Both the position numbers and the translations under genes were made by a program. Below the pieces are notes generated by a model. It was not told where the DNA came from. It worked only from the letters and a program-made list of their open reading frames with translations, and did no database searches. Positions 1 through 22,947 of a stretch of DNA of 64,000 bases are shown piece after piece. Every line of letters starts with the position of its first letter. Positions within the stretch are counted from its first letter, which is position 1. The stretch is taken from positions 266,164-330,163 of the forward strand of contig JBBQBA010000002.1 in assembly GCA_038317055.1 (NCBI GenBank), given 5' to 3'. This DNA comes from Candidatus Saccharimonadales bacterium. Lineage in GTDB: Bacteria; Patescibacteriota; Saccharimonadia; Saccharimonadales; DATKHC01.

Positions 1-488
1 CTGGGTTCCATAGGAGCTATACCAAAATCATCACCCAGACCATCGTTCCTAATTATTCCGTAGTTAACTACTAAATTACTATTACCATTAATTACTTCTA
101 TGTAGCTCTTATTTCGTTCTATACCGGCATCGCTTAGCATTTTATCGAATACTGACGTTCGCGCAAAGAGACCTTGTTCGGTTTGCTTTATTTCATCATA
201 GCCAACAATCAACACCTTATTGCCGCTCGTATACTTTTTAAGTAACCAGTTATTAGCATACATAACAGGTAATGTTACGAAAGCATCCTCTGGTCTAATA
301 TCACCATCATCAATAATTTCTATCATTGTCATGAATCTATTTTCACTAATTAATAGATTCGCTATCTTATCGGCTGTTTCTTGTAGATGACTACGGGGTT
401 GTTCTGGGTTTATGCGTTTTCTATTAAAAAAAGCCCTTTTACCTTTAGTTGAATAGTCACCTGGAGGTTCTTCGTGACCTGATTTCAT
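1..488 (-). CDS. hypothetical protein, partial (C-terminus lies beyond the left window edge)
   Basis: The minus-strand frame is open from the ATG at 486-488 (MKSGHEEPPGDYSTKGKRAFF...) to the window edge. A TATAAT box at 498-503 sits 9 nt upstream. I recognise no family. Confidence 0.5.
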   Translation of the reverse strand, partial: MKSGHEEPPGDYSTKGKRAFFNRKRINPEQPRSHLQETADKIANLLISENRFMTMIEIIDDGDIRPEDAFVTLPVMYANNWLLKKYTSGNKVLIVGYDEIKQTEQGLFARTSVFDKMLSDAGIERNKSYIEVINGNSNLVVNYGIIRNDGLGDDFGIAPMEP

Positions 489-497
489 AATTTAGAT

Positions 498-503
498 ATT
501 ATA
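498..503 (-). promoter_or_regulatory. -10 box (TATAAT) 9 nt upstream of the ATG at 488
   Basis: The minus strand reads TAGTATAATatctaaattATG. Confidence 0.4.
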
Positions 504-532
504 CTATGTTTGCTTAAACTAACTAAACATAC

Positions 533-575
533 GAGTTCGGAACTCCGACTCTAGCCCAGCCAAACTATATAGGAA
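533..575 (+). repeat. intergenic cassette-boundary repeat, copy 1
   Basis: Sequence GAGTTCGGAACTCCGACTCTAGCCCAGCCAAACTATATAGGAA. It is almost identical to copy 6 at 2682-2724. Confidence 0.8.
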
Positions 576-626
576 TGCCCCCCCTACGCACTTTGACCTA
601 ATATAGGTGTCGATTTCATCAAAAGG

Positions 627-665
627 TGTTGAACTCTGACCATAATGGCCAGCCAAGCTTAAGCG
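627..665 (+). repeat. intergenic cassette-boundary repeat, copy 2 (degenerate)
   Basis: Sequence TGTTGAACTCTGACCATAATGGCCAGCCAAGCTTAAGCG. It shares the GTT..GAACTC head and the CCAGCCAAGC tail. Confidence 0.65.
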
Positions 666-686
666 TTTTAGTTTGATTCCTTACTG

Positions 687-995
687 GTGTATTATTCAAC
701 CTACATGAATAATAACTGTGAGAAGTGTCCCTTAAATAAAATGTTGCATAGAGATTTGGTTCCTCCAACTGAAGCTGATGCCCAAGATATAGACACAATT
801 AGGAATGGTATAACTGAGCATATGGGTGATTGTGAAGGGTACAGTCGGACTATGTATTTATCGGCAAAACTCCTTCGCACGATAATGGGTCCATTAGCAG
901 CCATTCAAGATCCTGAATTTACTATGTGCCAAAGCCCATATAAAGAAACAGAAGAATATCATCAGACTTTAATTGATATTGGTGAAAGAGGCTAG
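687..995 (+). CDS. hypothetical small Cys-containing protein
   Basis: A 102-aa ORF with a GTG start (an alternative ATG lies at 705) lies exactly between repeat copies 2 and 3. I recognise no family. Confidence 0.4.
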   Translation: MYYSTYMNNNCEKCPLNKMLHRDLVPPTEADAQDIDTIRNGITEHMGDCEGYSRTMYLSAKLLRTIMGPLAAIQDPEFTMCQSPYKETEEYHQTLIDIGERG

Positions 996-1017
996 TCTAA
1001 TATAGTTAGTGTCACTA

Positions 1018-1052
1018 GGCTCGGAACTCAACCTCGATAACCAGCCATAAGC
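1018..1052 (+). repeat. intergenic cassette-boundary repeat, copy 3 (degenerate)
   Basis: Sequence GGCTCGGAACTCAACCTCGATAACCAGCCATAAGC. Confidence 0.6.
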
Positions 1053-1067
1053 ACCTAGACTAAACTA

Positions 1068-1607
1068 TTAATCCTTGCCAAGTTTCTCTTCTGCGATTTT
1101 TCGCATTAAATTTGCCCTTAACTCTGCATTTTTTAAATCCATAATAGCTGACACATGTCTCTGTAGGATTGGGTTATCGTCTAGTTGATGATGGTATTTT
1201 CTATTTAGAAGAGGATAACCCTCTAGTCTTCTTTTTACATAGTCACTGAAAAACGTAGGAACGAATTTGTTTTTACTGCTCTCGATTAAGAATGTTGGAG
1301 TAACGCGCTTAGAAGTTATATCTATTATAACTTTAGTAGCTGTAGTTTCATTAGTAATTTGAGTTGCTACTTGACCAAGTTGTTTATATATTTGTGTAAA
1401 GGCGACTGCTGGCCTTTCAGCATCTGTCGTAATCATAACAGTATCACCCCGAACACCCTCGTCTCCGGTGGCACCAACATTCCTTGGAAGTTCGCCATAT
1501 TCTATGTCAAAGTTATTGCCCAGCTCACTATCAACTAGCTTGGCAGCTCTATCTACATCATCCTGATCAAACGGTCTTATCTCCCTTTGAGGTATCTTGT
1601 CTTCCAT
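1068..1607 (-). CDS. hypothetical protein
   Basis: A 179-aa ORF bounded by repeat copies 3 and 4. An extended -10 box lies 6 nt upstream of the ATG. Confidence 0.55.
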   Translation of the reverse strand: MEDKIPQREIRPFDQDDVDRAAKLVDSELGNNFDIEYGELPRNVGATGDEGVRGDTVMITTDAERPAVAFTQIYKQLGQVATQITNETTATKVIIDITSKRVTPTFLIESSKNKFVPTFFSDYVKRRLEGYPLLNRKYHHQLDDNPILQRHVSAIMDLKNAELRANLMRKIAEEKLGKD

Positions 1608-1613
1608 TGAATT

Positions 1614-1622
1614 ATTATATCA
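1614..1622 (-). promoter_or_regulatory. extended -10 promoter (TGaTATAAT) 6 nt upstream of the ATG, implying a leaderless mRNA
   Basis: The minus strand reads TGATATAATaattcaATG. Confidence 0.5.
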
Positions 1623-1630
1623 AACTAGAA

Positions 1631-1670
1631 AGTTCGGAACTCGGACTCTAGCCACAGTCAAGCGTGAGCG
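1631..1670 (+). repeat. intergenic cassette-boundary repeat, copy 4
   Basis: Sequence AGTTCGGAACTCGGACTCTAGCCACAGTCAAGCGTGAGCG. Confidence 0.8.
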
Positions 1671-1672
1671 AT

Positions 1673-2248
1673 TCAAACCTTACTATACTGAAGGTGCACA
1701 AAACCATTTTCAAATTTTCGCAAATCCACCAACTTTAGATTGGTTTTAATATCTTTCGGTAACCAATAATTGCCACTTCCTATCGTGATAGGAGCAATAA
1801 TTTGATGATACTCGTCGACAATATTGGACTTTATTGCTTCCGCCGCTAAATGAGGGCCGCCAATGTCAAAATCTTTATCTGACTCTGCAACTAATTTTTG
1901 TATTATGTATGGATCGAAGGATCGCTCAATCGTAGCATTAGCTATTGTGACCTCAGAAAGCGAAGTGGAATAGATTATCTTCTTTGCATCTCGCCAAATT
2001 TTAGCATATTCATTCATAGCTAAACTTGGGCCGTCCATGGGTCCACCTGTCCCTTCTGTCGGAATGTCGTCCCATACTTTCATCGTCTCGTACAAGTTAT
2101 GACCCATAAGAATTGTCCCAATATTACGTAAAGTGTCATTTACAAAAGTATGTACTTCTTCAGTTGGCTTAGCCCATTCAAAATTACCATTCTTATCAGC
2201 CACAAAGCCGTCTACCGATGTCGTTATAAGGTATATTAGCTTGCCCAT
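1673..2248 (-). CDS. dihydrofolate reductase family protein (RibD C-terminal domain type)
   Basis: The N-terminus MGKLIYLITTSVDGFVADKNGNFEW, then ...ILMGHNLYE..., and the C-terminal DIGGPHLAAEAI...VDEYHQIIAPITIGSG match the RibD_C/DHFR-like pattern. Confidence 0.75.
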   Translation of the reverse strand: MGKLIYLITTSVDGFVADKNGNFEWAKPTEEVHTFVNDTLRNIGTILMGHNLYETMKVWDDIPTEGTGGPMDGPSLAMNEYAKIWRDAKKIIYSTSLSEVTIANATIERSFDPYIIQKLVAESDKDFDIGGPHLAAEAIKSNIVDEYHQIIAPITIGSGNYWLPKDIKTNLKLVDLRKFENGFVHLQYSKV

Positions 2249-2290
2249 AAATTTATTATCTCACAAATCCATCAGCCGTAATAAGCAATT

Positions 2291-2330
2291 GGGTTCTAGA
2301 AGTGTCTGATCCCCAGCCAAGCATAAGAGA
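2291..2330 (+). repeat. intergenic cassette-boundary repeat, copy 5 (degenerate)
   Basis: Sequence GGGTTCTAGAAGTGTCTGATCCCCAGCCAAGCATAAGAGA. Confidence 0.6.
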
Positions 2331-2331
2331 T

Positions 2332-2658
2332 TTAAACTTGAGGCTTAATCCCTTGAACAAAGGTAAGTACTCGCCCTATAAAGGTTGCTGGAGTGTTAGC
2401 TCGCGCCTCAGCGTATTCTGGCGAATCGTACCAAGCTTTAGCATCTTTCATTGAGGGAAATTCAACTACCGACATATGACGGGTTAGCGACTCTCCTTCG
2501 ACAATCACTGGCTCAGCATTAGAGACAATGAAACGGCCACCAAAGTGTTCAATTGCTGGACCTGCTACCTCGGCGTAACGTTTGACTGTTGCTTCATCAA
2601 CAAATCCTTCTATTTCTGAGATTACATATGCTACGGGTGGTTTGGCTTCGTGATTCAT
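2332..2658 (-). CDS. DUF1330 domain protein
   Basis: The segment ...GGRFIV...VVEFPSMKDAKAWYDSPEYAEAR... is the typical DUF1330 signature. Confidence 0.75.
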   Translation of the reverse strand: MNHEAKPPVAYVISEIEGFVDEATVKRYAEVAGPAIEHFGGRFIVSNAEPVIVEGESLTRHMSVVEFPSMKDAKAWYDSPEYAEARANTPATFIGRVLTFVQGIKPQV

Positions 2659-2664
2659 AACTAG

Positions 2665-2673
2665 ATAATATCA
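2665..2673 (-). promoter_or_regulatory. extended -10 promoter (TGaTATTAT) 6 nt upstream of the ATG
   Basis: The minus strand reads TGATATTATctagttATG. Confidence 0.45.
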
Positions 2674-2681
2674 CGTCATAA

Positions 2682-2724
2682 AGTTCGGAACTCGGACCAT
2701 AGCCCCAGCCAAACTATATAGGAA
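2682..2724 (+). repeat. intergenic cassette-boundary repeat, copy 6
   Basis: Sequence AGTTCGGAACTCGGACCATAGCCCCAGCCAAACTATATAGGAA. Confidence 0.8.
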
Positions 2725-2760
2725 ACAACGTTAGGAAAATTGTGGTGAAGTAATCAGTAT

Positions 2761-2810
2761 AGTTCTAACTTCATACAAAGTGACCAGCCAAGGATACTCA
2801 GTCAAGCGTA
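2761..2810 (+). repeat. intergenic cassette-boundary repeat, copy 7 (degenerate)
   Basis: Sequence AGTTCTAACTTCATACAAAGTGACCAGCCAAGGATACTCAGTCAAGCGTA. Its tail CAGTCAAGCGT is shared with copy 4. Confidence 0.6.
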
Positions 2811-2817
2811 ACCCTTA

Positions 2818-2826
2818 TGCTACAAT
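2818..2826 (+). promoter_or_regulatory. extended -10 promoter (TGcTACAAT) 6 nt upstream of the ATG at 2833
   Basis: The plus strand reads TTATGCTACAATtcaataATG. Confidence 0.5.
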
Positions 2827-2832
2827 TCAATA

Positions 2833-3378
2833 ATGAAATCCAATCAAAAAGGATTTACTCTTGTTGAAGCCCTTATCTTGTTTATTGTATTAGTGATTGT
2901 TGTTGGTACTGGCATATATATCTTCCAATACAATAACAATAAAGATAATACTCAACACCTAGAAGTAAATATGCCTGACGATACTCCACCATATATCTTT
3001 TCTATAAGTGAGTGGAAAATTCAGGCACCTTATCATGGCGAACAAGCTCTGAGATATACAATTGATCCAAGTGATCCCAATGAAGCGGGTCTTACGTCTA
3101 CGCAGCTAGTTAATGCTGACAGTAGTTGTCCATCTAATGCAGCTGGTTCTATCGAACGTGCTCAGGCAGGCGAACAATCTGTTTTGGGTGCGATTCCGCA
3201 AACTCCGGAACAATACGTTCAATCGGGCGCCAAATACTACACTAAAATTGGTAGTTATTATTACTTTTTCTCAGGACCACAGATGAATTGCTCAAGTGAG
3301 AGTTCAGTAAATATAATACAAAAAACTACAACCAAAGAGATACAAAATCTGATGTCAAAGTTTGTGACTAGCAAATAA
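2833..3378 (+). CDS. type IV pilin-like protein (prepilin-type N-terminal cleavage/methylation domain)
   Basis: The N-terminus MKSNQKGFTLVEALILFIVLVIVVG carries the class III signal G|FTLVE followed by a hydrophobic helix. Confidence 0.8.
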   Translation: MKSNQKGFTLVEALILFIVLVIVVGTGIYIFQYNNNKDNTQHLEVNMPDDTPPYIFSISEWKIQAPYHGEQALRYTIDPSDPNEAGLTSTQLVNADSSCPSNAAGSIERAQAGEQSVLGAIPQTPEQYVQSGAKYYTKIGSYYYFFSGPQMNCSSESSVNIIQKTTTKEIQNLMSKFVTSK

Positions 3379-3380
3379 AT

Positions 3381-3402
3381 AGTTCGGAACTCTTGACCCA
3401 GC
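3381..3402 (+). repeat. intergenic cassette-boundary repeat, copy 8 (truncated)
   Basis: Sequence AGTTCGGAACTCTTGACCCAGC, starting 2 nt after the pilin stop codon. Confidence 0.6.
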
Positions 3403-3412
3403 TTTATGTAGA

Positions 3413-3994
3413 ATGATCTGTTATCATATCTTAGTGAAAAGTCTAATATTTTCAACTAGTAACGAAGGCAAATATAAAACAGCTCAATCTGTATTTAGCC
3501 AATATGGTATAGCTGTTATTCAAAAAACTGCAGATGTGGATGAAATACAGTCTGAGGATGCCAGAATAGTAGCTATAGACAAATCCACCAAAACATATGA
3601 ATTATTAAAACAACCAGTATTGATAACGGACGACTCTTGGTCATTTCCTGGTCTTAAAGGATTTCCTGGTGTATATATGCATTCTATAAATACATGGTTT
3701 AGCCCAGAAGACTTTTTACATCTTACCCAATCACTTAAAAATCGTAGAGCTATATACACTCAATATCTTGTATACAATAACGGTGAAGAGCACAAAGTAT
3801 TTAAGTCTGAGCATAATGGGACGCTACTAAAAGAAATAAAAGGAAGCTCTCCTCATGCAAGCCATATGATTATAGCAATGGACGGAGAGAACGGTCTTAG
3901 TATTGCAGAGATACATAACAAAAATGTAGATCGCTCTAAACGAGATATGTCAGAAGCTTGGCATGAGTTCGCTAAGTGGTTTAGTAAAGCATAG
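3413..3994 (+). CDS. Ham1/ITPase-like non-canonical NTP pyrophosphatase
   Basis: The segment LIFSTSNEGKYKTAQSVF...ITDDSWSFPGLKGFPGVYM resembles the Ham1 family (TgNkgK...DDSGL..L.G.PGvyS). The true start may instead be the GTG at 3434. Confidence 0.6.
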   Translation: MICYHILVKSLIFSTSNEGKYKTAQSVFSQYGIAVIQKTADVDEIQSEDARIVAIDKSTKTYELLKQPVLITDDSWSFPGLKGFPGVYMHSINTWFSPEDFLHLTQSLKNRRAIYTQYLVYNNGEEHKVFKSEHNGTLLKEIKGSSPHASHMIIAMDGENGLSIAEIHNKNVDRSKRDMSEAWHEFAKWFSKA

Positions 3995-4026
3995 TTCGGC
4001 AATCGGACTCAATTCCCAAACATAAG
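3993..4026 (+). repeat. intergenic cassette-boundary repeat, copy 9 (degenerate)
   Basis: Sequence AGTTCGGCAATCGGACTCAATTCCCAAACATAAG. It overlaps the stop codon of the preceding gene. Confidence 0.6.
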
Positions 4027-4048
4027 TATTCATAGGTATTTTATTACA

Positions 4049-5719
4049 CTACTCAGCAGCACCGATAGATAAACCTTTAGTGGTGGGAACTGTCACCTTA
4101 TAGTAATCAACTCCGCCAATATTGGTGCCGAACACACTTGTTAAGTTAATGCCCGAGTTTTTGATTGGTGAACCACTTGCTGGTTGATAAGCTGTTAATT
4201 GTGTTGGGCTATAACCACCAGCAATCGTACCTCCACCACCAGCATTGTTAAGTTTGGGGTTGGAGGTTAGACCAATAGACACGCCATTTAATTTTTCTTG
4301 ACCTGTAGCTGACCGCCAAGAACTAATCGTATTATAGGTTTTTGTTCCCCAGTAAGCCGTAAATGTGTAGTAGTCATTTGATTGGAAATTAATTGTAGAT
4401 GTAGTTGTAGATCCAGTAACTATTACCGGGTAAGTACCACCAGTTGCTATAAGTATGTTATTACGCACATTAGTTAATCCGCTTCCAGTCAGATAGGCTT
4501 CAAAGCTAGAAGGTTTAGCTCCATTACTCGGAGTTATATATACCGTATTGTTATATATCGAATCTCCAGAAACATTACCATAAAGTTCAATGGCACCGTA
4601 GCTATTCTTTCTAGCATCATTCTGGCTAATATTAAATCGTATGGTGTTACCCTTATGGGCTTCGTTTGAAGACTCACCGAAAACGAGATAGCCTGAACCA
4701 TCATTATCGTGAGAGTAGTTATATTCAATAAATGAATTAGAGGTATTTTGATCTAAGTCAAATCCATCGCCATCTACTTTACCTCCAGTATGATTAGAAT
4801 AAGATTGATTGTATTCTATTGTGTCACCAGTGGAATCGTAAGCCCATATGCCAACAGCACAAGCGTTTGACTTACAATTTGCGCCATTATTGTATGCAAG
4901 CGATTGATATATTTTGGAATTCTTACTATTCCCAAGAACAATGCCACTTCCAGACCAAGTGGTTCCGGTTATACTGGAGTCTCCATAATTGTTATAGGCA
5001 GTAACTTTACTAACATTTACATTTTGATTAACATAAGTTGGACTCGCTGGGTTAAAGGTTGGACCGTAAGTTTGTAAACCAGCAATCTGATTATCATGAA
5101 AAGTTGAGTTGTTTACTGTAACATTACTAAATCCACTGCCTCCATTACCTCCCCCCATCAAGAAACCGTTTTTGAAGCCGTTCGCAGTAACATTATTCAC
5201 GGATACATAATTTAGTATCGTGTTATTGCTATCATCGTTATAGAAATTTAGGCCTGAACCAGTGTCATTACCAGCCCCAGAACCAACTATATTTAGATTA
5301 GATATGCTGATACCGGCAGCATCATAGGCAAGTATTCCGTTATTAGTACCAGTTTCTGAAAGGACAGCTTTTCCTGTTCCATAACTACTAATATTTATTG
5401 GAGATGTAGAAGTACCGCTTTCACCTGGAACAAAGTAAATTTGTCCACTAAATGTATCACCACCATTAAATAGTATGCTATCTCCTGGGTTAAAGTGAAC
5501 GGAATTTACGCGGGCAATTGTTTGCCATGAAGTTGATGGGCTAGTTCCGTTATTTGAATCTTTACCTGTTGAACTAACATAATAAGTCGTCCCGATCTGA
5601 GCTGCGTGGCTGGCAGTCATTACTCTTATTCCAACTAAAGCTATCAGAGCAATAACTATTATTGGAAGAAATATGTGATGGACGAAACCTTTAGAATTAA
5701 GTTTTACTTTTATTAACAT
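4049..5719 (-). CDS. secreted right-handed beta-helix (pectate-lyase fold) protein
   Basis: It has an N-terminal anchor/signal ending in SHAAQ, then TYYVSSTGKDSNNGTSPSTSWQTI...PGDSILFNGGDTF, then many N/G-rich beta-helix coils. Confidence 0.75.
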   Translation of the reverse strand: MLIKVKLNSKGFVHHIFLPIIVIALIALVGIRVMTASHAAQIGTTYYVSSTGKDSNNGTSPSTSWQTIARVNSVHFNPGDSILFNGGDTFSGQIYFVPGESGTSTSPINISSYGTGKAVLSETGTNNGILAYDAAGISISNLNIVGSGAGNDTGSGLNFYNDDSNNTILNYVSVNNVTANGFKNGFLMGGGNGGSGFSNVTVNNSTFHDNQIAGLQTYGPTFNPASPTYVNQNVNVSKVTAYNNYGDSSITGTTWSGSGIVLGNSKNSKIYQSLAYNNGANCKSNACAVGIWAYDSTGDTIEYNQSYSNHTGGKVDGDGFDLDQNTSNSFIEYNYSHDNDGSGYLVFGESSNEAHKGNTIRFNISQNDARKNSYGAIELYGNVSGDSIYNNTVYITPSNGAKPSSFEAYLTGSGLTNVRNNILIATGGTYPVIVTGSTTTSTINFQSNDYYTFTAYWGTKTYNTISSWRSATGQEKLNGVSIGLTSNPKLNNAGGGGTIAGGYSPTQLTAYQPASGSPIKNSGINLTSVFGTNIGGVDYYKVTVPTTKGLSIGAAE

Positions 5720-5783
5720 TTTTATTTTTAACTAATACCCTAGAATAGTACTTTTTTAGCTTAATATTCTCAAGCATACATAA

Positions 5784-5817
5784 TGTTCAGAACTTGGCAT
5801 ATAACTCTAGTTATAAG
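5784..5817 (+). repeat. intergenic cassette-boundary repeat, copy 10 (most degenerate)
   Basis: Sequence TGTTCAGAACTTGGCATATAACTCTAGTTATAAG. Confidence 0.4.
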
Positions 5818-5838
5818 AATTTTAAAATAGCTAGTTAT

Positions 5839-7236
5839 TTAATAAGGACTTACTTGTGCAAGATGAGTTTTGTAGTTTGACCCTTGGGGCGAGACAGTAC
5901 TGGCTGTACCATCATAATTCGACAATAGGCCATAGTTTGACCAATATTTAGCACCGTCACTAATATTTACCGAACACTGTGTAGCACTTGTGCCGGTTGG
6001 ATTCCATGTCCAGGCTAAGTATGATTCATTATTTTGATCAGCCCATGTCATATACATATTCATGAAGTTAACACTACAATCTGATTCGCCGAATTCATCA
6101 GTAACCACCGGTATACCAGCTGATGTAATTGGGTTTTGTTCTGCGTCCCAGTGAGGAATCCAGTAAGATGATGCTGGAATGCTGCCGTCAGAATAATTAT
6201 GGTAGGCGACTATTAGTTTATGGTTAGGATCTGTTGGCATATTTGCTAGCTCTGGGCAGGCTGCCGAACTACCAAATTTATTTATAACTCCACATGGATC
6301 ACTTGATCCTCTAATTCCACTTAATATTATGGGCTGAGAGGCTCCGGTAGCGCGAATTGTATTAACAAGCTGTTGCATTCCAGCGGTGTTATAAGTCACG
6401 GCAGGGTTTACGGGGCTTGTAGTGTTACCCGAAAAAGTTAAACTGCATCCATTTAGCCAGCAAGTCCAAGGTGGTGTAGTGGTTGTTGCATTTGGGTTTC
6501 CGATAAATGGCTCGTTAAAGAGGTCATACATGACAGCCGGATAAGATTTGAAGGTGGTCGCAACAGATGACCAGAAAGTAGGCGAATGATCTTGGTCAGC
6601 CATCCCCCACTGTTGAACAGTTAGTATATTGCCCGGAGCTGACCAATGTAGATCTATTATTGTATATATACCTGCATTATTAAGATCAGTCACCCAACTC
6701 TCAATAGCTGTTTGGTAAGCTTGGGCAGCTGCTGATCCAGTAAGAGTTACTGATTTACCATTTACAGTTGAACTTAATGAAACTCCATTTATTCCTAACC
6801 AACAGTCCTCATTAAGTGGAACTCTAACAGCATTGATTTTCCACGAAGCTATAGCTTCTGCTTCAGTACTATTTAGAGGCCTACCACCATTAATTGAATG
6901 AGTGGTACTACAGTATTCAGAGCCAGATACATTTGCCCCCAATAACCTAATAGTCTGTCCGTTTCCATTCACTAGGTGATTACCGTTTACACTTATAGAT
7001 AGAGGAGCTCCAAACTGTACCCCATGCCCATCTCTAGCGGTAGCATCATTAGTTATTGATGCTCCACCATTAAGCTTGCCTGTGTCAGCATTAACTGAAA
7101 CAAACGGTGATGCTGCATGAGATCCAATTAGAAAATGGACACCAATTATTGCAATAATAATTACTATAGCTATTTGACTGGCTGTTTTTATATTTTTATT
7201 GCTTTTCTTTTTTAGCTTTGTAGCTAGTTTTTTCAT
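5839..7236 (-). CDS. glycoside hydrolase family 5 (cellulase/mannanase-like), secreted
   Basis: Motifs NAVRVPLNEDCW, IIDLHW, MYDLFNEP (acid/base) and VVTDEFGE (nucleophile) are present. The signal ends in SHAAS. The ORF stays open up to a TTG at 7245. Confidence 0.8.
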   Translation of the reverse strand: MKKLATKLKKKSNKNIKTASQIAIVIIIAIIGVHFLIGSHAASPFVSVNADTGKLNGGASITNDATARDGHGVQFGAPLSISVNGNHLVNGNGQTIRLLGANVSGSEYCSTTHSINGGRPLNSTEAEAIASWKINAVRVPLNEDCWLGINGVSLSSTVNGKSVTLTGSAAAQAYQTAIESWVTDLNNAGIYTIIDLHWSAPGNILTVQQWGMADQDHSPTFWSSVATTFKSYPAVMYDLFNEPFIGNPNATTTTPPWTCWLNGCSLTFSGNTTSPVNPAVTYNTAGMQQLVNTIRATGASQPIILSGIRGSSDPCGVINKFGSSAACPELANMPTDPNHKLIVAYHNYSDGSIPASSYWIPHWDAEQNPITSAGIPVVTDEFGESDCSVNFMNMYMTWADQNNESYLAWTWNPTGTSATQCSVNISDGAKYWSNYGLLSNYDGTASTVSPQGSNYKTHLAQVSPY

Positions 7237-7318
7237 AAAAATCAATGACTAGTTAACTTATAGTTACGTTAGTATTAGCATAACATTAATAACTTCTGCT
7301 TGAGTTAGTCATTTTCTT

Positions 7319-7843
7319 TTAGATATCATATATATCTCTTACTGTCTCTGTAAGATCAGTATAATGTGGAAAATCTTTTTCATAATTTGCCTCTGCACGT
7401 AATGCTCTAATTACAATTTCACCATAATCTTTTATATCTTCACATTTAACCGGCAAAGTATAAGGGTCAGGCTCAGTAGTGTCGGATAGTTGTACTGATT
7501 TAAGTGTCATTTCTGATATGCCGCTAGACTCAAATATAAATAGAGCTAGTTCATAACCCTCATAAGCAGCTTTTCTGAATGTATTTCTTAGTATAAGACT
7601 CAGGTAAATTTCATTATCAGTATTACACATTCCATAACCTGCTAATAGACCTAAATCAACACAAGTAGCTATAACTGCATCTTCATCTTCCTCTGGTATT
7701 TCGTCTACATTTGGTATTTGAAAGGTAACTTCTACTGCCCATAACCGGGGTATAACATCATCGACTTGCTCCAAAACACCATAGGATTTTTCACTCATTA
7801 ATATATATTCCATCTTACTCATGTTTTTCGCAAGCACTAGCAA
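7319..7843 (-). CDS. hypothetical acidic protein
   Basis: A 174-aa ORF, probably starting at an internal Met (MSKMEY or MSEKSYG). I recognise no family. Confidence 0.5.
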   Translation of the reverse strand: MLVLAKNMSKMEYILMSEKSYGVLEQVDDVIPRLWAVEVTFQIPNVDEIPEEDEDAVIATCVDLGLLAGYGMCNTDNEIYLSLILRNTFRKAAYEGYELALFIFESSGISEMTLKSVQLSDTTEPDPYTLPVKCEDIKDYGEIVIRALRAEANYEKDFPHYTDLTETVRDIYDI

Positions 7844-14961: not shown

Positions 14962-15777
14962 ATGAATATTTGGCGAGCCAAATACTATAAATTCAATATT
15001 AGCCAAAATCGAAAAGTATTAATTACTATTCGCCGGTTCAAGACTGCCAAAATAAATCGTTCAAAGAAGTTTAGTCAGATAGTAATACCGTTTGAAATCG
15101 GTAAGATCAAAGAGTTCTCGTTCAGACTTCATCAGACTAAAAGACGTAGTCGAAAACAAAAAGAACTAACAACCTTGCAACGATTTACTCCAACTCCTGC
15201 GAGCGTACTTATTACACTGGGTTTAATTGGAACAATAGTATTTGGCATACAAATAAGCTCAAGTCATGCTCTTGAACCGACCAAAACTTTCTCAACCACT
15301 AAACAGGTGGCGCCGGTCAAATCATTGCCGGCGTCCGTTCCAACAAATATATCTATACCATCTGTTAATATAGATTATCCAATCATTACAGTTGGACTAG
15401 ATACTGCTGGTGCTATCCAGTTGCCACCAGTACTGTCCTGGAATACAGGTTGGTATAATGGAAGCCCTACTCCTGGACAAATTGGACCCTCAATAATAGT
15501 TGGACATGTCGATAGTTATCAAAATATCTCAGTATTTTGGCGTCTACGTTATGTTCAGCCAGGTGCGTTAATTTATATCAAACGAACAGATGGAACTACT
15601 GTCACGTTTAAAGTAACCGATTTAAAGCAATTCGACCAAAGTGCGTTTCCAACGGCAGAAGTATATGGCAATATAAAATATCCGGGACTTCGCCTAATTA
15701 CCTGTGGTGGAACATTTGATTCTCAATCTGCAAGCTATTCGCAAAATACAGTAGTATTCGCAACTATAGTAGATTAA
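14962..15777 (+). CDS. sortase family protein (class E/F-like), no Arg downstream of the catalytic Cys
   Basis: It carries the His motif SIIVGHVDS and the Cys motif LRLITCGG. The tail TFDSQSASYSQNTVVFATIVD contains no Arg. Confidence 0.75.
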   Translation: MNIWRAKYYKFNISQNRKVLITIRRFKTAKINRSKKFSQIVIPFEIGKIKEFSFRLHQTKRRSRKQKELTTLQRFTPTPASVLITLGLIGTIVFGIQISSSHALEPTKTFSTTKQVAPVKSLPASVPTNISIPSVNIDYPIITVGLDTAGAIQLPPVLSWNTGWYNGSPTPGQIGPSIIVGHVDSYQNISVFWRLRYVQPGALIYIKRTDGTTVTFKVTDLKQFDQSAFPTAEVYGNIKYPGLRLITCGGTFDSQSASYSQNTVVFATIVD

Positions 15778-16245: not shown

Positions 16246-16899
16246 ATGAAGAAAATTCTTTCTCAGATTAAAAACAGAAAAATAAGTAATGCTCAACTAG
16301 TTAGTCTAGTTAGTATCACTTTACTTGCAATTGGACTCGTAATTGTATTACCTTCGCTTTATTTTAGGTGGAATAACACTGGTACGGCATCAGCTAATCC
16401 GATAACTGCGAGTCAGGTATGGTCAAAAGTTAACTCAGAAGCTAAACCAACCACAAATCAAGTAAAGGTAACTGGATTTCCTATATCTATATCGATTCCA
16501 GGGTCTCGACCAGCCCTAAATATTTACGATCAAGTTATTCCTGGTTATTATAATAAAAACAGTGGTCAGTGGACTCTAAGCGGCAAGGCAGCTCAATTTG
16601 CTGTGATATCTAGTCAACCTAATAACATTTCTGGAAATACTTTTATTTATGGTCATTATAATCCATATGTGTTTGCATACTTACATTTAATTACCCCAGG
16701 TACAGTTGCTACTATTACAACTGACAATGGCTATGAATTTAGCTATAAGTTTGTAAATACATATACAGTCCAGCCAACTGATACTAATGTTCTAAACTAC
16801 AGTGGATCACCAATCTTAACAGTTCAAACATGTTCAGGTGCTTTTTTCCAAAACCGACAAATGTTTGTATTTAGCTTCGAAAGCTATAAGAAAATATAG
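16246..16899 (+). CDS. sortase family protein
   Basis: It has an N-terminal TM anchor, the His motif FIYGHYN, the Cys motif LTVQTCSG, and Arg in FQNRQMFVF. Confidence 0.8.
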   Translation: MKKILSQIKNRKISNAQLVSLVSITLLAIGLVIVLPSLYFRWNNTGTASANPITASQVWSKVNSEAKPTTNQVKVTGFPISISIPGSRPALNIYDQVIPGYYNKNSGQWTLSGKAAQFAVISSQPNNISGNTFIYGHYNPYVFAYLHLITPGTVATITTDNGYEFSYKFVNTYTVQPTDTNVLNYSGSPILTVQTCSGAFFQNRQMFVFSFESYKKI

Positions 16900-18422: not shown

Positions 18423-18572
18423 TCTTGTCTCGGTTGAGGAAATATATTTTTCCGCAATTAATAAACAATACTATAACTGATTTTGTACTTTTTTGCAAGT
18501 TCTTTATGTAATATAGTATTTGTTTGCTAATATCTCAAAGTTCTTATCCTGTAATACTGCAATGAAATAGGA

Positions 18573-18599
18573 TTGACAGCATATCAATTTTAGTATAAT
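18573..18599 (+). promoter_or_regulatory. sigma70-type promoter (TTGACA-15-TATAAT)
   Basis: TTGACA lies at 18573-18578 and TATAAT at 18594-18599, 11 nt upstream of the ATG at 18611. Confidence 0.45.
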
Positions 18600-18610
18600 G
18601 TATTTTCATT

Positions 18611-20032
18611 ATGGTTATTACTGAGGCCCAGCCTAAGCCTTTAGATTTAATTTGCCCCGATGAACTAACTACACGTGATGGCATTGTAAATGCTATGCAA
18701 AATTTAGTTAGTAGCGACATGTCCGGTGAAGAGCAAATTGATCATCTAAAAAACTTAACCGAAAGACTTATTGCTGTTACGGGAGATGTTGCAGTAGATG
18801 AATATGACCGATATAGTAAAACTAGCGAGCGTGGTCTACAGCTTCCTCATCAAAAACTTTTCGAACAACTTGAAGATAAATCAGTAATTGTCACTGGTGG
18901 AACTGGTTTAATAGGCTCAAAATTAATACCACTTATAAAAGGTTACAATCCTAGAAGAATAGTTAGCCTAAGCCGTGGAATTACAACTCCCATGGAACAA
19001 ATAGAAGGCGTTGAATATCATAATGTAGATATTAGAAACGCCGATAAATTAAAAGTTAGTATCGATACAATCTCACCGGATGTTGTGTATCATTTAGCTG
19101 CTCAACGACTACCTGATTTAGCCGAAACTGAAGTAAATCGAACTGTTACCACGAATGTTGACGGAACAAAGAACATTATTGATGCCTTAACAAATGCTGG
19201 TGTAGATCAATTGATTTACGCTTCTACCGGTAAAACACTACGACCATTTTCGCCCGATGTTTATGCAGCATCTAAACAATTTACTGAGGCAATACTTGCT
19301 CAAGCGTCTTCTGAATCGCCAATTCAAATTTCTGCTGGTAGATTTACACACGTAGTGGATGGTTCAAATATTATTCGAAAATTAGCTTCATGGATTGAAA
19401 ATGGTGAAGTAATCGACATTCATGACCCTAACAGCGTGATGTACGTTCAATCTGCCCGAGAAGCAGCCATGTTACTTCTAATTGCTGGAGTAGATAAGAA
19501 ACCGGACGTATTGAACATTCATGCTATTAGAGATTTAGGCTACCATATTAATACCGCCAATGTTGCTATTGGAGCATTAATTAAGATGGGTGGAAAATCT
19601 CCAATACGATTTACTGGATATAGTTCAGGTTACGAAGAAGAGGCATATCACGGACTGTTTCACCCTCGTACCTCACTCGATATAAGTCCGCTAATAAATC
19701 AGCATGAAGCAGAAGCCGCAAAACCGTCTGTATTATGTGAAGAAGTTGATGTATTTCCATTTCAAGTTGGTGATCTTAGTGTTTTTAATGAATACGTTGA
19801 ACTGCTTAAAGAAGCTTGTAATAATGATATGGACTCAGGCTTTATTAAAGAATTAATGGCCGAAGTATCATGGGCTTTATGGGATGCAAAAATTGATGCA
19901 ATGCCGCCGCTTGCTGTACTTAAGGCAGCTAAAAAAGCAGCAAATATTCGAAGTCATCCAATAGCTAGCACTAACAAACATCATTTTCGAACAGACCAAG
20001 CATTTATAGATAAAGCTATATTATTAAGCTAA
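18611..20032 (+). CDS. NAD-dependent epimerase/dehydratase (polysaccharide biosynthesis, CapD-like)
   Basis: It has the Rossmann motif VIVTGGTGLIGS and the YxxxK motif (YAASK). Confidence 0.8.
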   Translation: MVITEAQPKPLDLICPDELTTRDGIVNAMQNLVSSDMSGEEQIDHLKNLTERLIAVTGDVAVDEYDRYSKTSERGLQLPHQKLFEQLEDKSVIVTGGTGLIGSKLIPLIKGYNPRRIVSLSRGITTPMEQIEGVEYHNVDIRNADKLKVSIDTISPDVVYHLAAQRLPDLAETEVNRTVTTNVDGTKNIIDALTNAGVDQLIYASTGKTLRPFSPDVYAASKQFTEAILAQASSESPIQISAGRFTHVVDGSNIIRKLASWIENGEVIDIHDPNSVMYVQSAREAAMLLLIAGVDKKPDVLNIHAIRDLGYHINTANVAIGALIKMGGKSPIRFTGYSSGYEEEAYHGLFHPRTSLDISPLINQHEAEAAKPSVLCEEVDVFPFQVGDLSVFNEYVELLKEACNNDMDSGFIKELMAEVSWALWDAKIDAMPPLAVLKAAKKAANIRSHPIASTNKHHFRTDQAFIDKAILLS

Positions 20033-20035
20033 TTT

Positions 20036-20482
20036 TTATCTAACCAAAAAATGATGTGATAAAAGGAATTCGTCCTGATCAGCATGCATATCATCAGGCA
20101 ATTTTGAAAACCAACCACCATCAGAAGCTTCACTATTTATTTTGGGTTCACCGGAGTATTTAGTAATCTCAAAAACAAGCCCAACTAAGGTACCTAATCC
20201 TTTAGCTTTATGGCTAGGGTATTCCACATATCCAATAAATTTTGATTCAGATACAGAAATACTAAGTTCTCTTTGGGCAACCCTGATTAGAGCATCATTG
20301 AGTGTTTCACCGTTGTAGAGCGTTCCACCAGGAACTGTCCATTCAGTGCATGGTTCTATAGCACGTCGTGTTAAATATACTTCTTGTTTTTCATTCCTAA
20401 CAAGTGTTTCAACTGATAATCTTGGGACTTTAGAATAGATATTATTAAATTCTTCTTTTGTAAGTGGGAAGTCATTGCTCAT
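20036..20482 (-). CDS. NUDIX hydrolase
   Basis: It has the Nudix box GGTLYNGETLNDALIRVAQRELSI. Confidence 0.8.
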   Translation of the reverse strand: MSNDFPLTKEEFNNIYSKVPRLSVETLVRNEKQEVYLTRRAIEPCTEWTVPGGTLYNGETLNDALIRVAQRELSISVSESKFIGYVEYPSHKAKGLGTLVGLVFEITKYSGEPKINSEASDGGWFSKLPDDMHADQDEFLLSHHFLVR

Positions 20483-20513
20483 AAGTTCATTATACCTATA
20501 TTTAAATACATAT

Positions 20514-20547
20514 AAAAAGGAGCCTAATCAGAGGCTCCTTTTATTTT
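20514..20547 (-). terminator. rho-independent terminator
   Basis: The stem GGAGCC/GGCTCC has an 8-nt loop and is flanked by A- and T-runs. It lies downstream of 20565..21101. Confidence 0.7.
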
Positions 20548-20564
20548 AGTTTTAAATGTTTTTA

Positions 20565-21101
20565 TTAATCTTCGATTGAGCGTGCAGCCATTAATTCTAC
20601 GATACCAACTACGATAGCGTAAATTCCAATAAGCCATACAAATGCAATACCTGCAGTTGCTTTTTGGTCAAGAATTATAATTCCAACCACAGCAGCAAAT
20701 AAACCTGAAAATACAGACATTCCACGACTACCACCGTCAGCCTTAGTATCAAGTAATGCACCTACCAGTTCCATAACACCACGTATGATTAGTATAAAAC
20801 CAAGCAAACCTATGAATAGACTAAAAGTTTCAGCTGGATGTCTCAAGATGTAAACACCGAAACCAAGCTCGACAAGCCCTAGAACTGCAGTTAAGAACCA
20901 ATAACCACCATGTGTCATGCTTGCAAGACCATGGAAGATATGTGCGATTCCACTAACTAACAGGTATGCACCTACTAGATAGATTAATATTACTAGCGTT
21001 AAACTGGGCCAAAAAATGACAGCTACTCCGAAAAGTAGAGTCAAAATACCCTGAAAAACCAAAACGCCATGAACGTCTTTGGCCGTTACTGCTTTTGCCA
21101 T
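20565..21101 (-). CDS. HdeD/DUF308 family membrane protein
   Basis: It has six hydrophobic helices and the repeated pattern G.l.l..G...i..P typical of DUF308. Confidence 0.7.
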   Translation of the reverse strand: MAKAVTAKDVHGVLVFQGILTLLFGVAVIFWPSLTLVILIYLVGAYLLVSGIAHIFHGLASMTHGGYWFLTAVLGLVELGFGVYILRHPAETFSLFIGLLGFILIIRGVMELVGALLDTKADGGSRGMSVFSGLFAAVVGIIILDQKATAGIAFVWLIGIYAIVVGIVELMAARSIED

Positions 21102-21210
21102 TAATTTTCTCCTTAAAACTTACTATTGTTGACATATTACTACTAAATTGTCTGATTTAAAAACAAAAATACTGAAAATGTGTTGTGGTTTTACTGCGGA
21201 TAATTTTACT

Positions 21211-22947
21211 TTAAGGGGTGAAACTGCTGATGTTTTGAACACGTTTCTGATTATCTGTGCCGCTCGCAGGGATTATAGATAATTTAAGTCCATTTGAATT
21301 CAAGAGGATATAATCATCGGTCCACCAGCCATATGGCGTGTACTGATAATTATCAAAATTAGCAATTGCCTTAGCACTTCCACCATTTTTATCTCCTACA
21401 TAAATTGTAGTTTTACCATCAACTAATCTTGACCACATTTGATATGCACCGGAAGGTGATAAATAGTATGGTGAACTTGTTGGAGGATTTGCAATCGTAG
21501 TTGCAAGAGCCTGAGCAGTAGAAGCGGTTATCTTCCCCTTAGCAAAAGTGAAGTAGCTAACTTTATTTGTTGCCGCATTAGTATAAGCGATGGCGACAGT
21601 ATTTGGAGATGTATAAATAAATTTAGGCGGAGAACTGTAGTTAGTGGTTGGTGTCAGCGATTGTTGAGATTCAGGTATTTGGAATACTTTGTTTGATGAA
21701 CCCAGAATCGCCGTAATTGTAGTTGAACTAGATGCGATCGTTGCTGGAACTCCTGTCCAATACTTTGAAAAAAGTACATTATCGTCATTTAGAACAATTA
21801 CTGAATTATAATTTTGTTGAGATGAAGAGAAGGAATTAAAACCACCAATATTTGCAGTATCTAAGCGATAAGGTTTAGGTGATTTAGAAGATGCATTATA
21901 AGCAATCAGTTTTGAACCGCTTCCTCCATCATCAGGAATACCGTTTGCGACAGCAGTGTAGATTAAAATATCATCGGGTGTCCATCCATATATATTCATT
22001 CCGAGTGGTGACTGACCAATACTTACGAAGTTCTTTTTAGCTACGTTATATACATAAAGCGTTGGTGTATTTGCAGCATCGGGCATTGTAACTGCAATAT
22101 ACTTTGAATCAGGCGAAGCTAGCATGTGAGTATTGGCTGGCGTAGCTGAAGCTGATGCTGGTACGACCGGCACAGAATTTGTTCCATCTAGATCTGATTG
22201 AACCAATGACACATTTGGACTGCCAGAATTTAAGTAATAAGTTTTTCCAGTAGGCACCATCGTATAACTATTAATAGTATTGTTATTTATTGAGACTTTA
22301 TTAACATTGTACGTATCAGCAGTAACACTTGCTTCTACTAGTGCCTGATCACTTGGTAAATTTATAACAGCATGGCCTATTGAATTCGTAGTAACAGAAC
22401 TTTGCAGTGCATTTACTACTGCTCCACTAATTGGTTTTTGTGTAAACCTATTACTTACAAAGATGCTTATTTCAGTACCAACACCTTTAATAGCAAAGAC
22501 ATGGTAATTATGATTAGTGAAAGTAACGAGTGTTGTAGTCTGGTAATTTTGATAATAGATATGTTTTATCGAAAGTACGGCATCACCAACCTTAATTCTC
22601 GGGAAGGTTGCTTGACCTGCACTATTAGTAGTCACAGTTTGCCCCCGTAAATTGACTGTTGCATTTGAAAGTGGTTGTGAAGTTTGGGAATCAATCACCA
22701 TAATTGAATAATGCTGCTTCTTAACTACACCAAAAATGTCGTATTTATAAACTAGTATTACAAAAATAGTCGGTATCAGGATTAGAAGAGTAACCAATAA
22801 GAAGATTCGGCGTTCTTGAAGATATCTAATTATTCTACTACGTTTTGGTTTATTCGGTGGTAGAACGTTTGAAGCGCCACTATACTGATTATATGAATTT
22901 GGCGGGAAATAACTACTTGGTACTTGAGGTAATTTTTTTGGTTGCAT
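21211..22947 (-). CDS. membrane-anchored protein with carboxypeptidase-regulatory-like and beta-propeller-like regions
   Basis: It has an N-terminal TM segment, then two SQPLSNATVNL/GQTVTTNSAGQA-type Ig-like segments, then TolB-like repeats. Confidence 0.55.
   Translation of the reverse strand: MQPKKLPQVPSSYFPPNSYNQYSGASNVLPPNKPKRSRIIRYLQERRIFLLVTLLILIPTIFVILVYKYDIFGVVKKQHYSIMVIDSQTSQPLSNATVNLRGQTVTTNSAGQATFPRIKVGDAVLSIKHIYYQNYQTTTLVTFTNHNYHVFAIKGVGTEISIFVSNRFTQKPISGAVVNALQSSVTTNSIGHAVINLPSDQALVEASVTADTYNVNKVSINNNTINSYTMVPTGKTYYLNSGSPNVSLVQSDLDGTNSVPVVPASASATPANTHMLASPDSKYIAVTMPDAANTPTLYVYNVAKKNFVSIGQSPLGMNIYGWTPDDILIYTAVANGIPDDGGSGSKLIAYNASSKSPKPYRLDTANIGGFNSFSSSQQNYNSVIVLNDDNVLFSKYWTGVPATIASSSTTITAILGSSNKVFQIPESQQSLTPTTNYSSPPKFIYTSPNTVAIAYTNAATNKVSYFTFAKGKITASTAQALATTIANPPTSSPYYLSPSGAYQMWSRLVDGKTTIYVGDKNGGSAKAIANFDNYQYTPYGWWTDDYILLNSNGLKLSIIPASGTDNQKRVQNISSFTP

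Follow-up and report, generated by a model that had tools for sequence, protein, structure and literature searches.

A 29-bp repeat derived from the tRNA-Gln 3' end lies between single-gene cassettes in a Saccharimonadales genome

Background

The genomes of Saccharibacteria and other CPR bacteria are very small, and to our knowledge descriptions of mobile elements in them are few. The locus studied here, at the left end of a stretch of 64,000 nucleotides from a Candidatus Saccharimonadales bacterium (hereafter the window), raises the question of how small unrelated genes, lying on both strands, came to be separated from one another by copies of a single repeat that all point the same way. The original prediction proposed a cassette array built on unrecognised recombination sites, with integrons and Xer/dif modules as its analogues, and a shared regulatory element as the alternative.

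Repeat copies and genes of the window

The array had been placed in the window's first 5.8 kb, which turn out to be its terminal part; the whole comprises about 14 one-gene cassettes. In a public contig that matches the window exactly, four more sites lie 80 to 1955 bp left of position 1, and the leftmost of all copies is a 24-nt piece of the tRNA-Gln 3' end, without mismatch. This fragment is all of tRNA-Gln that was recovered from the window's own genome, and ARAGORN called no tRNA in the window or in sequence L001.

Nine of the ten copies originally reported could be recognised, all on the plus strand and all in intergenic gaps; as predicted, one or two of them are present in each gap between genes over the region 488-5839. 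The head, AGTTCGGAACTC, had been described as a perfect palindrome. It is so in four copies (exact at 534, 1631, 2682 and 3381, plus strand) and not in the others; at 1018 and 3993 it has two mismatches. Elsewhere in the 64 kb, with up to two mismatches allowed, it was found just at 7005 and 57212, on the minus strand and with two mismatches each time. The 12 head matches observed compare with 3.15 expected, and 12 was reached in none of 100 shuffles (in this count the palindrome scores on both strands). The tail, CCAGCCAAGC, is present with at most one mismatch at 556, 649, 2313, 2705 and 2784 (plus strand). When the window was scanned with a profile made from 16 copies, full scores were obtained at 534 (28.8 bits), 1017 (24.9), 1629 (33.7) and 2680 (35.0), and partial matches at 631 (9.3), 2308 (11.4), 3379 (10.5) and 3992 (10.9). 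The other 58 kb gave no score above 7.2 bits, which bears out the claim that no copy lies past 5.8 kb.

From left to right, the window opens on a cassette gene with no assigned function (1..488, minus strand; 169 aa in full) whose stop and last seven codons lie left of position 1; it has no PHROGs match and its Pfam record is '-'. It is followed by an A-type site with a 28-nt core, GTTC...CCAGCCA (535..562, plus; head exact, tail present, 28.8 bits), and by a variant site, GTTGAACTCTGACCATAATGGCCAGCCA (628..655, plus; tail exact), which closes an empty 51-nt interval (576-626). This variant, starting at 627, is kept at 86% over 49 nt in the unrelated contig L064. Next come a 102-aa gene with no assigned function after Pfam and PHROGs searches (687..995, plus), an A-type site of subtype AACTCAACCTCGAT (1019..1047, plus; 24.9 bits), which also occurs at position 7275 of L023, and a 179-aa gene with no assigned function (1068..1607, minus). 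An A-type site with the tail CAGTCA (1632..1660, plus; head exact, 33.7 bits) precedes a RibD_C/DHFR-family gene (1673..2248, minus; 191 aa, Pfam). In the following site the head is degenerate and the tail intact, with a AAGCATAAG extension (2293..2319, plus; tail exact, 11.4 bits); this site leads to a DUF1330 gene (2332..2658, minus; Pfam), the GC content of which is 0.45, compared to 0.36 for the window.

The A-type site at 2683..2711 (plus; head exact, 35.0 bits) has 21 nt of tail and flank in common with the copy at 534 (family D5). A degenerate site, GTTC...CCAGCCA, whose length is the expected 29 nt (2762..2790, plus; tail with one mismatch), was recognised from its sequence, is missed by the profile, and closes a short non-coding interval. 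A type IV pilin-like gene (2833..3378, plus; N_methyl motif just under the Pfam cut-off) is followed by a shortened site (3382..3402, plus; head exact, about 7 nt gone mid-site, tail CCCAGC, 10.5 bits), then by a Ham1-like gene (3413..3994, plus; Pfam) with a stop codon that overlaps the start of a diverged site (3994..4021, plus; head with two mismatches, 10.9 bits). The last cassette gene encodes a secreted beta-helix protein of 556 aa (4049..5719, minus; weak Pfam match). Beyond it, the tenth copy predicted, at 5784 (5785..5817, plus), is head-like only; with a score of just 5.5 bits (E = 9) and the tail lacking, it is doubtful. Cassette units measure 0.1 to 1.8 kb, most of them with one gene, and the genes are split about half per strand. 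The gene calls of the original prediction stood: RibD_C, DUF1330, Ham1, the two unknowns and, as weak matches, the N_methyl pilin and the beta-helix protein. Exact-protein look-ups of the Ham1 protein and of a 174-aa flank protein returned no record.

Origin and anatomy of the site

An alignment of 24 copies from nine sequence sources delimited a 29-nt core with sharp edges, GTTCGGAACTCgGaCTggAtnCCCAGCCA, made of an 11-nt head, about 10 variable nt and an 8-nt tail, with no dyad; the flanks are unconserved. This core spans tRNA-Gln from the G53-equivalent T-loop base to A76 of the CCA. The repeat between cassettes stems from the tRNA-Gln 3' end: the common form has GTTCG and CCCAGCCA plus flank in common with the tRNA, and is longer by 5 nt. 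In L020, the 17 nt CCCAGCCAAGCATAAGC stand after both the tRNA and a repeat, and 3' fragments of tRNA-Gln were found in exact form in L001 and as close variants in L012, L026 and L042. This derivation, missed earlier, places the repeat with the att repeats anchored at tRNA and tmRNA genes. The head reads TTCGGAA where the real T-loop has TTCGAAT, which makes direct recombination with the tRNA at the head position questionable.

Sites inside the array differ from one another, and head-plus-spacer variants assort independently of tail-flank variants; comparing these combinations gave no crossover position. No shared structure emerged from ssDNA folding (z-scores from -2.2 to +0.8), Alifold returned a consensus structure on neither strand, and Rfam gave no match at E up to 1. 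Visual inspection gave no convincing dyad symmetry around CCAGCCAA.

Could the repeat be a tRNA-derived miniature element of the MITE or REP kind, multiplying itself into intergenic DNA? Such elements would be short, intergenic and tRNA-related, as the copies are; yet these are restricted to one locus per tRNA-Gln, every one of them points one way, and they show neither terminal inverted repeats nor a conserved fold, so that we consider this origin extremely improbable.

The regulatory alternative, by which the palindromic head would serve adjacent genes as an operator or as part of a promoter, draws on the position of the head in four minus-strand genes, 23 to 45 nt 5' of the ATG and beside a -10 box (from the sequence and the ORF list). 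In co-oriented genes, however, the site lies 0 to 22 nt past the stop codon. The repeat does not track gene orientation, its polarity being that of the tRNA, and its tail equals the tRNA-Gln 3' end, two features against a role set by the neighbouring genes. A promoter and terminator scan revealed no enrichment. The genome-wide distribution that the original prediction had named as pointing to a generic element was not seen either, as the motif is confined to one locus, has no other copy in the 58 kb, and was not found in the other Saccharimonadales loci examined. A regulatory role for the repeat is thus very improbable.

Arrays in related genomes

In related Saccharibacteria, the same repeat separates unrelated genes beside tRNA-Gln, which indicates a gene-capture hotspot. 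An intact tRNA-Gln lies directly upstream of the array, and co-oriented with it, in L012, L020, L083 and L061. Between genomes, DNA likeness is limited to the sites and the tRNA, and array proteins are almost all unrelated. L012 and L083 have the tRNA-Gln(ttg) (93% identical) and an upstream gene in common, but their first cassettes differ. The cargo of other arrays (toxin-antitoxin pairs, Fic, GNAT, DUF4396 and unknowns) is typical of mobile cassettes. In L020, a site-plus-gene unit is duplicated in tandem, with 88% identity between the two, and site subtypes recur across different genomes.

Two cargo genes of the window could be followed further. A homologue of the 179-aa gene, 50% identical, stands first after tRNA-Gln in L083; the gene is co-oriented with the tRNA there and antisense to the sites in the window, an opposition not expected of a single directional cassette lineage. 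The RibD_C cassette shows horizontal spread of a cargo gene: it is 78 to 86% identical at the nucleotide level to copies in genomes of 48 to 52% GC, and this DNA homology with higher-GC genomes is confined to the -10 box and the ORF. The contexts of its homologues contain no A-type sites, these genes being found in a repeat-free variable region between tRNA-Gly and tRNA-Cys/Leu.

The GH5 flank gene was tried as a synteny anchor; the context of its homologue lacks both the repeats and tRNA-Gln, and it was therefore used as a negative control only. Matches in GC-rich contigs (L047, L049, L056, L065 and L068) were taken as chance; at least those of L049 and L065 fall within a LysM gene. Viral contigs gave one chance-like match to the A-type pattern. 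Two tRNA-Gln fragments were also seen in viral contigs, of 47% GC. A BLAST search with the consensus against phage and plasmid sequences found no match.

Recombination at the site

No tyrosine or serine recombinase, and no Phage_integrase match, was detected with Pfam and PHROGs among the 40 ORFs of the window or in the array loci, nor did a crude motif regex scan reveal such a recombinase; none of the approximately 25 array units examined carries an integrase. The original prediction would have lost ground to a conserved cassette order with no associated recombinase; order differs between relatives, yet no recombinase was found. Gain or loss at the strain level was not seen, the only same-strain contigs being identical to the window.

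These results, together with the degenerate or truncated state of several window copies, might suggest fossil scars, that is, att copies left by ancient tandem integrations at tRNA-Gln, now fixed, inactive and kept by descent only. Some Dehalococcoides ssrA islands also appear to be fixed (PMC3146451). But the 29-nt block is strongly conserved over nine sequence sources in which flanks and cargo are unrelated, its subtypes recur in different genomes, and neutral scars beside unrelated DNA ought not to retain sharp edges. We regard fossil scars as unlikely, while giving them some weight.

The missing recombinase would also be accounted for if units entered by natural transformation followed by homologous recombination, the repeats serving only as short portable homology and no dedicated recombinase taking part. 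Saccharibacteria are reported to be naturally transformable, and the window encodes type IV pilin-like genes. However, about 29 nt of core is little homology for RecA-dependent exchange, and such a process leaves unexplained the strict polarity, the exact tRNA boundaries, and the repeat-free accessory-gene regions of related genomes. It is improbable for these reasons.

We conclude that the repeats are probably directional att-type recombination sites bounding integrated, mostly one-gene, cassettes. The part of the original prediction that called for a cassette array on an unrecognised site agrees with the same repeat standing beside unrelated cargo, at a single locus anchored on a tRNA. The data establish the site, its descent from tRNA-Gln, its anchoring at that gene, the unrelated cargo and the horizontal spread of one cargo gene. 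With neither a recombinase nor strain-level polymorphism seen, we infer that recombination takes place, that an enzyme carries it out, and whether the array is active today.

In the scheme that we propose, the sites, which stem from the final 24 nt of tRNA-Gln, T-loop to CCA, and are some 5 bases longer, mark the limits of small units that would have been inserted one after another 3' of the tRNA-Gln gene. A site-specific recombinase encoded elsewhere would join a circular cassette, composed of one site and one gene, to the 3' end of tRNA-Gln or, alternatively, to a resident site, and integration would duplicate the site; recombination between neighbouring sites could then excise or duplicate a cassette. 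Cassettes may stand in either orientation because each seems to carry its own -10 box directly 5' of the start codon. More tentatively, Saccharimonadales and at least one other lineage might possess an integron-like gene-capture platform based on a different site, in which a recombinase acting in trans would move promoter-bearing single-gene cassettes in and out at 29-bp sites that mimic the 3' end of tRNA-Gln, the gene of which would be the docking site. If so, tiny reduced genomes would gain a dedicated store of accessory genes.

Comparison with known systems

The array resembles the tandem islands anchored at tRNA or tmRNA genes, at the scale of an integron. It has the intact co-oriented target gene (in the four loci named above) and the direct repeats of its 3' end; the integrase expected on some units was absent from the approximately 25 examined. 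A search of the literature on related terms found no paper describing a cassette array anchored at tRNA-Gln.

The tandem ssrA islands of Dehalococcoides likewise have an intact small-RNA gene with numerous direct repeats of its 3' end behind it, in a hypervariable region (PMC3146451). Two other traits, an element-specific motif just upstream of the repeat and insertion in the T-loop (PMC3146451), were counted as likenesses to the array, and so was the existence of units without integration genes, regarded there as cis-mobilizable elements (PMC3146451). In contrast, the Dehalococcoides units are multi-gene islands, 16 of them with a serine recombinase module (DsiB) (PMC3146451), whereas those of the array are mostly one-gene units of less than 2 kb with no recombinase seen, target tRNA-Gln, and are bounded by a diverged, 5-nt-longer copy.

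The tycheposon islands of Prochlorococcus also lie beside tRNA genes, with successive integrations at one site, newcomers pushing older elements inward, and partial tRNAs scattered throughout (bioRxiv 10.1101/2020.12.28.424599), features that were taken as shared with the array. Tycheposons, unlike the array, are multi-gene and carry tyrosine recombinases and replication modules, none of which was found here. CIMEs keep att sites, have no integration genes, form tandem accretions at the 3' end of a target gene, and rely on an integrase supplied in trans (PMC5704250). The array is alike in all but the last, on which the likeness would be conjectural; CIMEs, however, represent decayed ICEs or IMEs and are several kb long, and the array units are gene-sized and numerous.

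The small modules, short recombination sites and presumed host recombinase in trans recall Xer/dif modules (IMEX, pdif). This analogy, drawn in the original prediction, fails on the site, which has no 11-6-11 XerC/XerD architecture, that is, no 28 nt with 11-nt arms around a 6-nt centre. Array sites are moreover direct repeats anchored at a tRNA, while Xer/dif sites alternate and are anchored at dif.

With integrons and CALINs, the array has in common compact one-gene units, a directional repeat between them that alone is conserved across arrays, and a mixed cargo rich in toxin-antitoxin, GNAT and unknown genes. Complete integrons have intI, attI and Pc, and CALINs lack all three. The integron analogy cannot be kept for the site itself: the original prediction was right that canonical attC cores are absent (GTTCGGA and TCGGAAC, the readings of the head on either strand, breach the RYYYAAC/GTTRRRY consensus), there is no hairpin, and the length is 29 nt, compared to at least about 55 nt for attC. 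Nor are the cassettes co-oriented and mostly promoterless: their genes are of mixed orientation and appear to have their own promoters. No intI or attI was seen, the integrase search covering the 40 window ORFs and the array loci. If the reading proposed here is true, a tRNA-Gln-anchored array of gene-sized cassettes offers a simple, searchable answer to how CPR bacteria gain accessory genes, and its 29-nt site is an easy marker to find arrays in metagenomes, to catalogue the cassette pool, and to hunt for the recombinase by co-occurrence. It would also mean that gene capture on the scale of the integron had its origin in ordinary tRNA-targeting integration, with no need of attC hairpins.

Repeat copies and extent of the array

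The original prediction divided the start of the window into one-gene cassettes by about ten copies of a repeat between 533 and 5817. A pattern scan of the window found its 12-nt 5' part, or head, AGTTCGGAACTC, in four perfect copies (534, 1631, 2682 and 3381) and two copies with two mismatches each (1018 and 3993), the six being on the plus strand. Only two other matches with at most two mismatches were present, on the minus strand at 7005 and 57212 (two mismatches each), and no shuffle of the window sequence reached the observed count. The 3' part, or tail, CCAGCCAAGC, is present at 556, 649, 2313, 2705 and 2784. With a profile made from 16 repeat copies, four strong matches (25 to 35 bits) and four partial ones (9 to 11 bits) were obtained between 534 and 4019; the other 58 kb of the window gave no score above 7.2 bits. 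The repeat array is real and non-random.

Among the individual copies predicted, that at 2761 has the correct 29-nt GTTC...CCAGCCA length, though the profile does not pick it up, and that at 627 is a variant kept in an unrelated contig; the copy at 5784 (5.5 bits) is unsupported. ORF and domain calls bear out the predicted gene content. The rule of one gene per interval holds in general, but not for two short intervals, 576-626 and approximately 2725-2760, which are gene-free. Beyond the array, the window also codes for three sortases, a WhiB-domain protein and an EndoU-family nuclease (14962-15777, 16246-16899, 33757-34419, 24015-24629 and 62854-63486), as well as several glycoside hydrolases (GH5, GH26).

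L001, a Logan contig of the same strain, matches window 1-3765 without mismatch and extends 6.4 kb further on the left side. This extra part holds three further good copies, between which lie genes for a 119-aa unknown protein, an alpha/beta-hydrolase and a cupin. Its far-left element is the 24-mer GTTCGAATCCCTCATCCCCAGCCA, identical to the tRNA-Gln gene's 3' end in a related genome; no full tRNA was found in L001 or the window by ARAGORN. The array thereby totals about 14 sites across 7.7 kb, with spacings of 79 to 1791 bp. The Logan assembly of SRR19962015 is broken at window 3765, inside the Ham1 gene, and again at 5754, 30 nt ahead of the last, doubtful copy; among the contigs retrieved from it, none spans 3766-5753. 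Coverage or population variation could explain these breaks.

Sequence of the sites and their anchoring at tRNA-Gln

In an alignment of 24 copies, drawn from nine sequence sources (eight other contigs besides the window/L001 strain), the conserved block, GTTCGGAACTCgGaCTggAtnCCCAGCCA, is bordered by non-conserved flanks on both sides; it starts at the base equivalent to T-loop G53, and its last base is the final A of the encoded CCA. Each of the four tRNA-Gln genes detected has CCCCAGCCA as acceptor end, which encodes the A72/G73 end typical of bacterial tRNA-Gln. At 29 versus 24 nt, the repeat exceeds the genuine tRNA segment by about 5 nt, and its T-loop-like portion reads TTCGGAA, versus TTCGAAT in the tRNA. 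In contig L020, the same 17 nt, CCCAGCCAAGCATAAGC, stand after the tRNA gene and again after a repeat, so that the likeness extends beyond the tRNA end.

Two types of site exist: the A-type is the common diverged form, and the B-type, known from L001, L012, L026 and L042, comprises genuine tRNA-Gln 3' fragments and near variants of them. The B-type fragments of L012 (3642-3707) and L026 (4487-4552), with some 40 nt downstream, share 85% identity over 66 nt, and this homology begins at GTTC. Both are placed after a Fic gene, and the sequence downstream may form a hairpin, the stems of which differ between the two genomes.

A set with one genome for each species, scanned for the repeat pattern, gave hits in three Saccharimonadales/Saccharibacteria MAGs and in a 780-kb MAG chromosome deposited as 'uncultured bacterium'. 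The order downstream of tRNA-Gln(ttg) in L012 is PIN/RHH toxin-antitoxin pair, A site, beta-helix gene, A site, the Fic gene and B site; L020 has four units, with A sites between them, behind tRNA-Gln(ctg); in L083, tRNA-Gln(ttg) precedes one gene and degenerate sites. Estuarine metagenome contigs of an unrelated group (L061, L050, L054, L057, L067 and L076) share this arrangement, their repeat being longer (about 200 bp). In all these cases the repeats lie downstream of tRNA-Gln and are co-directional with it.

In estuarine contigs L050 and L061, a GTTCGGAACTC...CCAGCCA core sits within the long repeat, with a spacing of about 4 kb (L050, 176, 4668 and 8411; L061, 1112, with tRNA-Gln at 2908-2981; all on the minus strand), and a YhcG nuclease and a glyoxalase are among the cargo. 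In L020, a long-read MAG, the rarA-like gene upstream of tRNA-Gln (6400-7600) is split into several frames, probably by sequencing frameshifts.

Other identities for the repeat

An attC identity was rejected: the canonical cores are missing, as originally predicted, and the ssDNA folds proved weak and inconsistent. The sites have no consensus structure on either strand, and the repeat gave no Rfam family match and no tRNA call. Going by the 24-copy alignment, the site is not dif-like, and a general promoter or terminator role was not supported by a promoter and terminator scan. The genome-wide spread that the original prediction had set against a cassette system was not seen: no site exceeded 10 bits in the other Saccharimonadales loci examined (L084-L091, L093-L094, L096-L100) or in L095. 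Accessory-gene regions running from tRNA-Gly to tRNA-Cys/Leu in related genomes contain zero repeats, and intergenic repeats are therefore not general to such regions. Three of these, in Saccharimonadales of about 50% GC, run from tRNA-Gly(gcc) to tRNA-Cys/tRNA-Leu (L093, 7832-17264; L097, 3850-19750; L098, 3219-14783) and hold 10 to 20 small accessory genes, the set varying by genome. In L084, also from Saccharimonadales, a TraG/VirD4-like coupling protein beside a reverse transcriptase gene (18534-21347) suggests a conjugative or integrative element.

Evidence for acquisition of the cassettes

All-versus-all BLASTN of the array loci matched the sites, the tRNA, one common gene upstream of the tRNA, a few homologous genes and little else. 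Proteins of different arrays are nearly all unrelated; cargo elsewhere comprises GNAT, RelE/CopG, PIN/Phd, ParE, Fic, HSDR_N, DUF4396 and unknowns. L012 and L083 have tRNAs 93% identical and the upstream gene in common, and differ in the first cassette. Two neighbouring site-plus-gene units of L020, 88% identical, are a tandem duplication of one unit. The 179-aa unknown of the window has two homologues in total among 5.8 billion proteins searched, one being the first gene downstream of tRNA-Gln in L083.

The RibD_C cassette has more than 1000 homologues, the top 120 being 79 to 85% identical and bearing names from three phyla. Its DNA (window 1673-2248) is 78 to 86% identical to copies in genomes of 48 to 52% GC, a range of identity that recurs across genomes of 36 to 52% GC. 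Homology spans from the -10 box to about 8 nt past the stop codon, and therefore a gene-sized unit moved. In L095 (9925-10830), two 60-nt direct repeats enclose RibD_C along with two tRNA-3'-like fragments, of which one has A-type length (GGTTCCGCC...CCCAGCCA).

Proposed mechanism and related systems

Site-specific recombination at att-type sites is the best fit for the array, with units that would act like cis-mobilizable cassettes. Head-plus-spacer variants and tail-flank variants assort independently, which suggests an exchange point near CCAGCCA, judging from sequence; the B-type fragments point to crossovers in the T-loop instead. The recombination reading has weak points. A recombinase was found neither on any cassette unit nor in the 40 window ORFs, the array loci or a motif scan; the strain's own tRNA-Gln was not seen; and the orientation of the 179-aa gene with respect to the sites is reversed between the window and L083. 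Strain-level polymorphism is also lacking, both same-strain contigs being identical to the window; that the array is an inactive fossil seems to us rather unlikely.

The nearest parallels in print are tandem ssrA islands in Dehalococcoides (PMC3146451), tycheposon islands (bioRxiv 10.1101/2020.12.28.424599) and the accretion of cis-mobilizable elements (PMC5704250). The ssrA islands carry a 20-bp repeat corresponding to the 3' end of ssrA with an element-specific motif just upstream, and involve T-loop insertion and a serine recombinase (PMC3146451). The units described here differ from all three in scale and autonomy, and share with integrons their gene-sized units. A literature search returned no description of such arrays in this phylum, and the array is best classed as a variant of tRNA-anchored tandem integration, of integron-like granularity.
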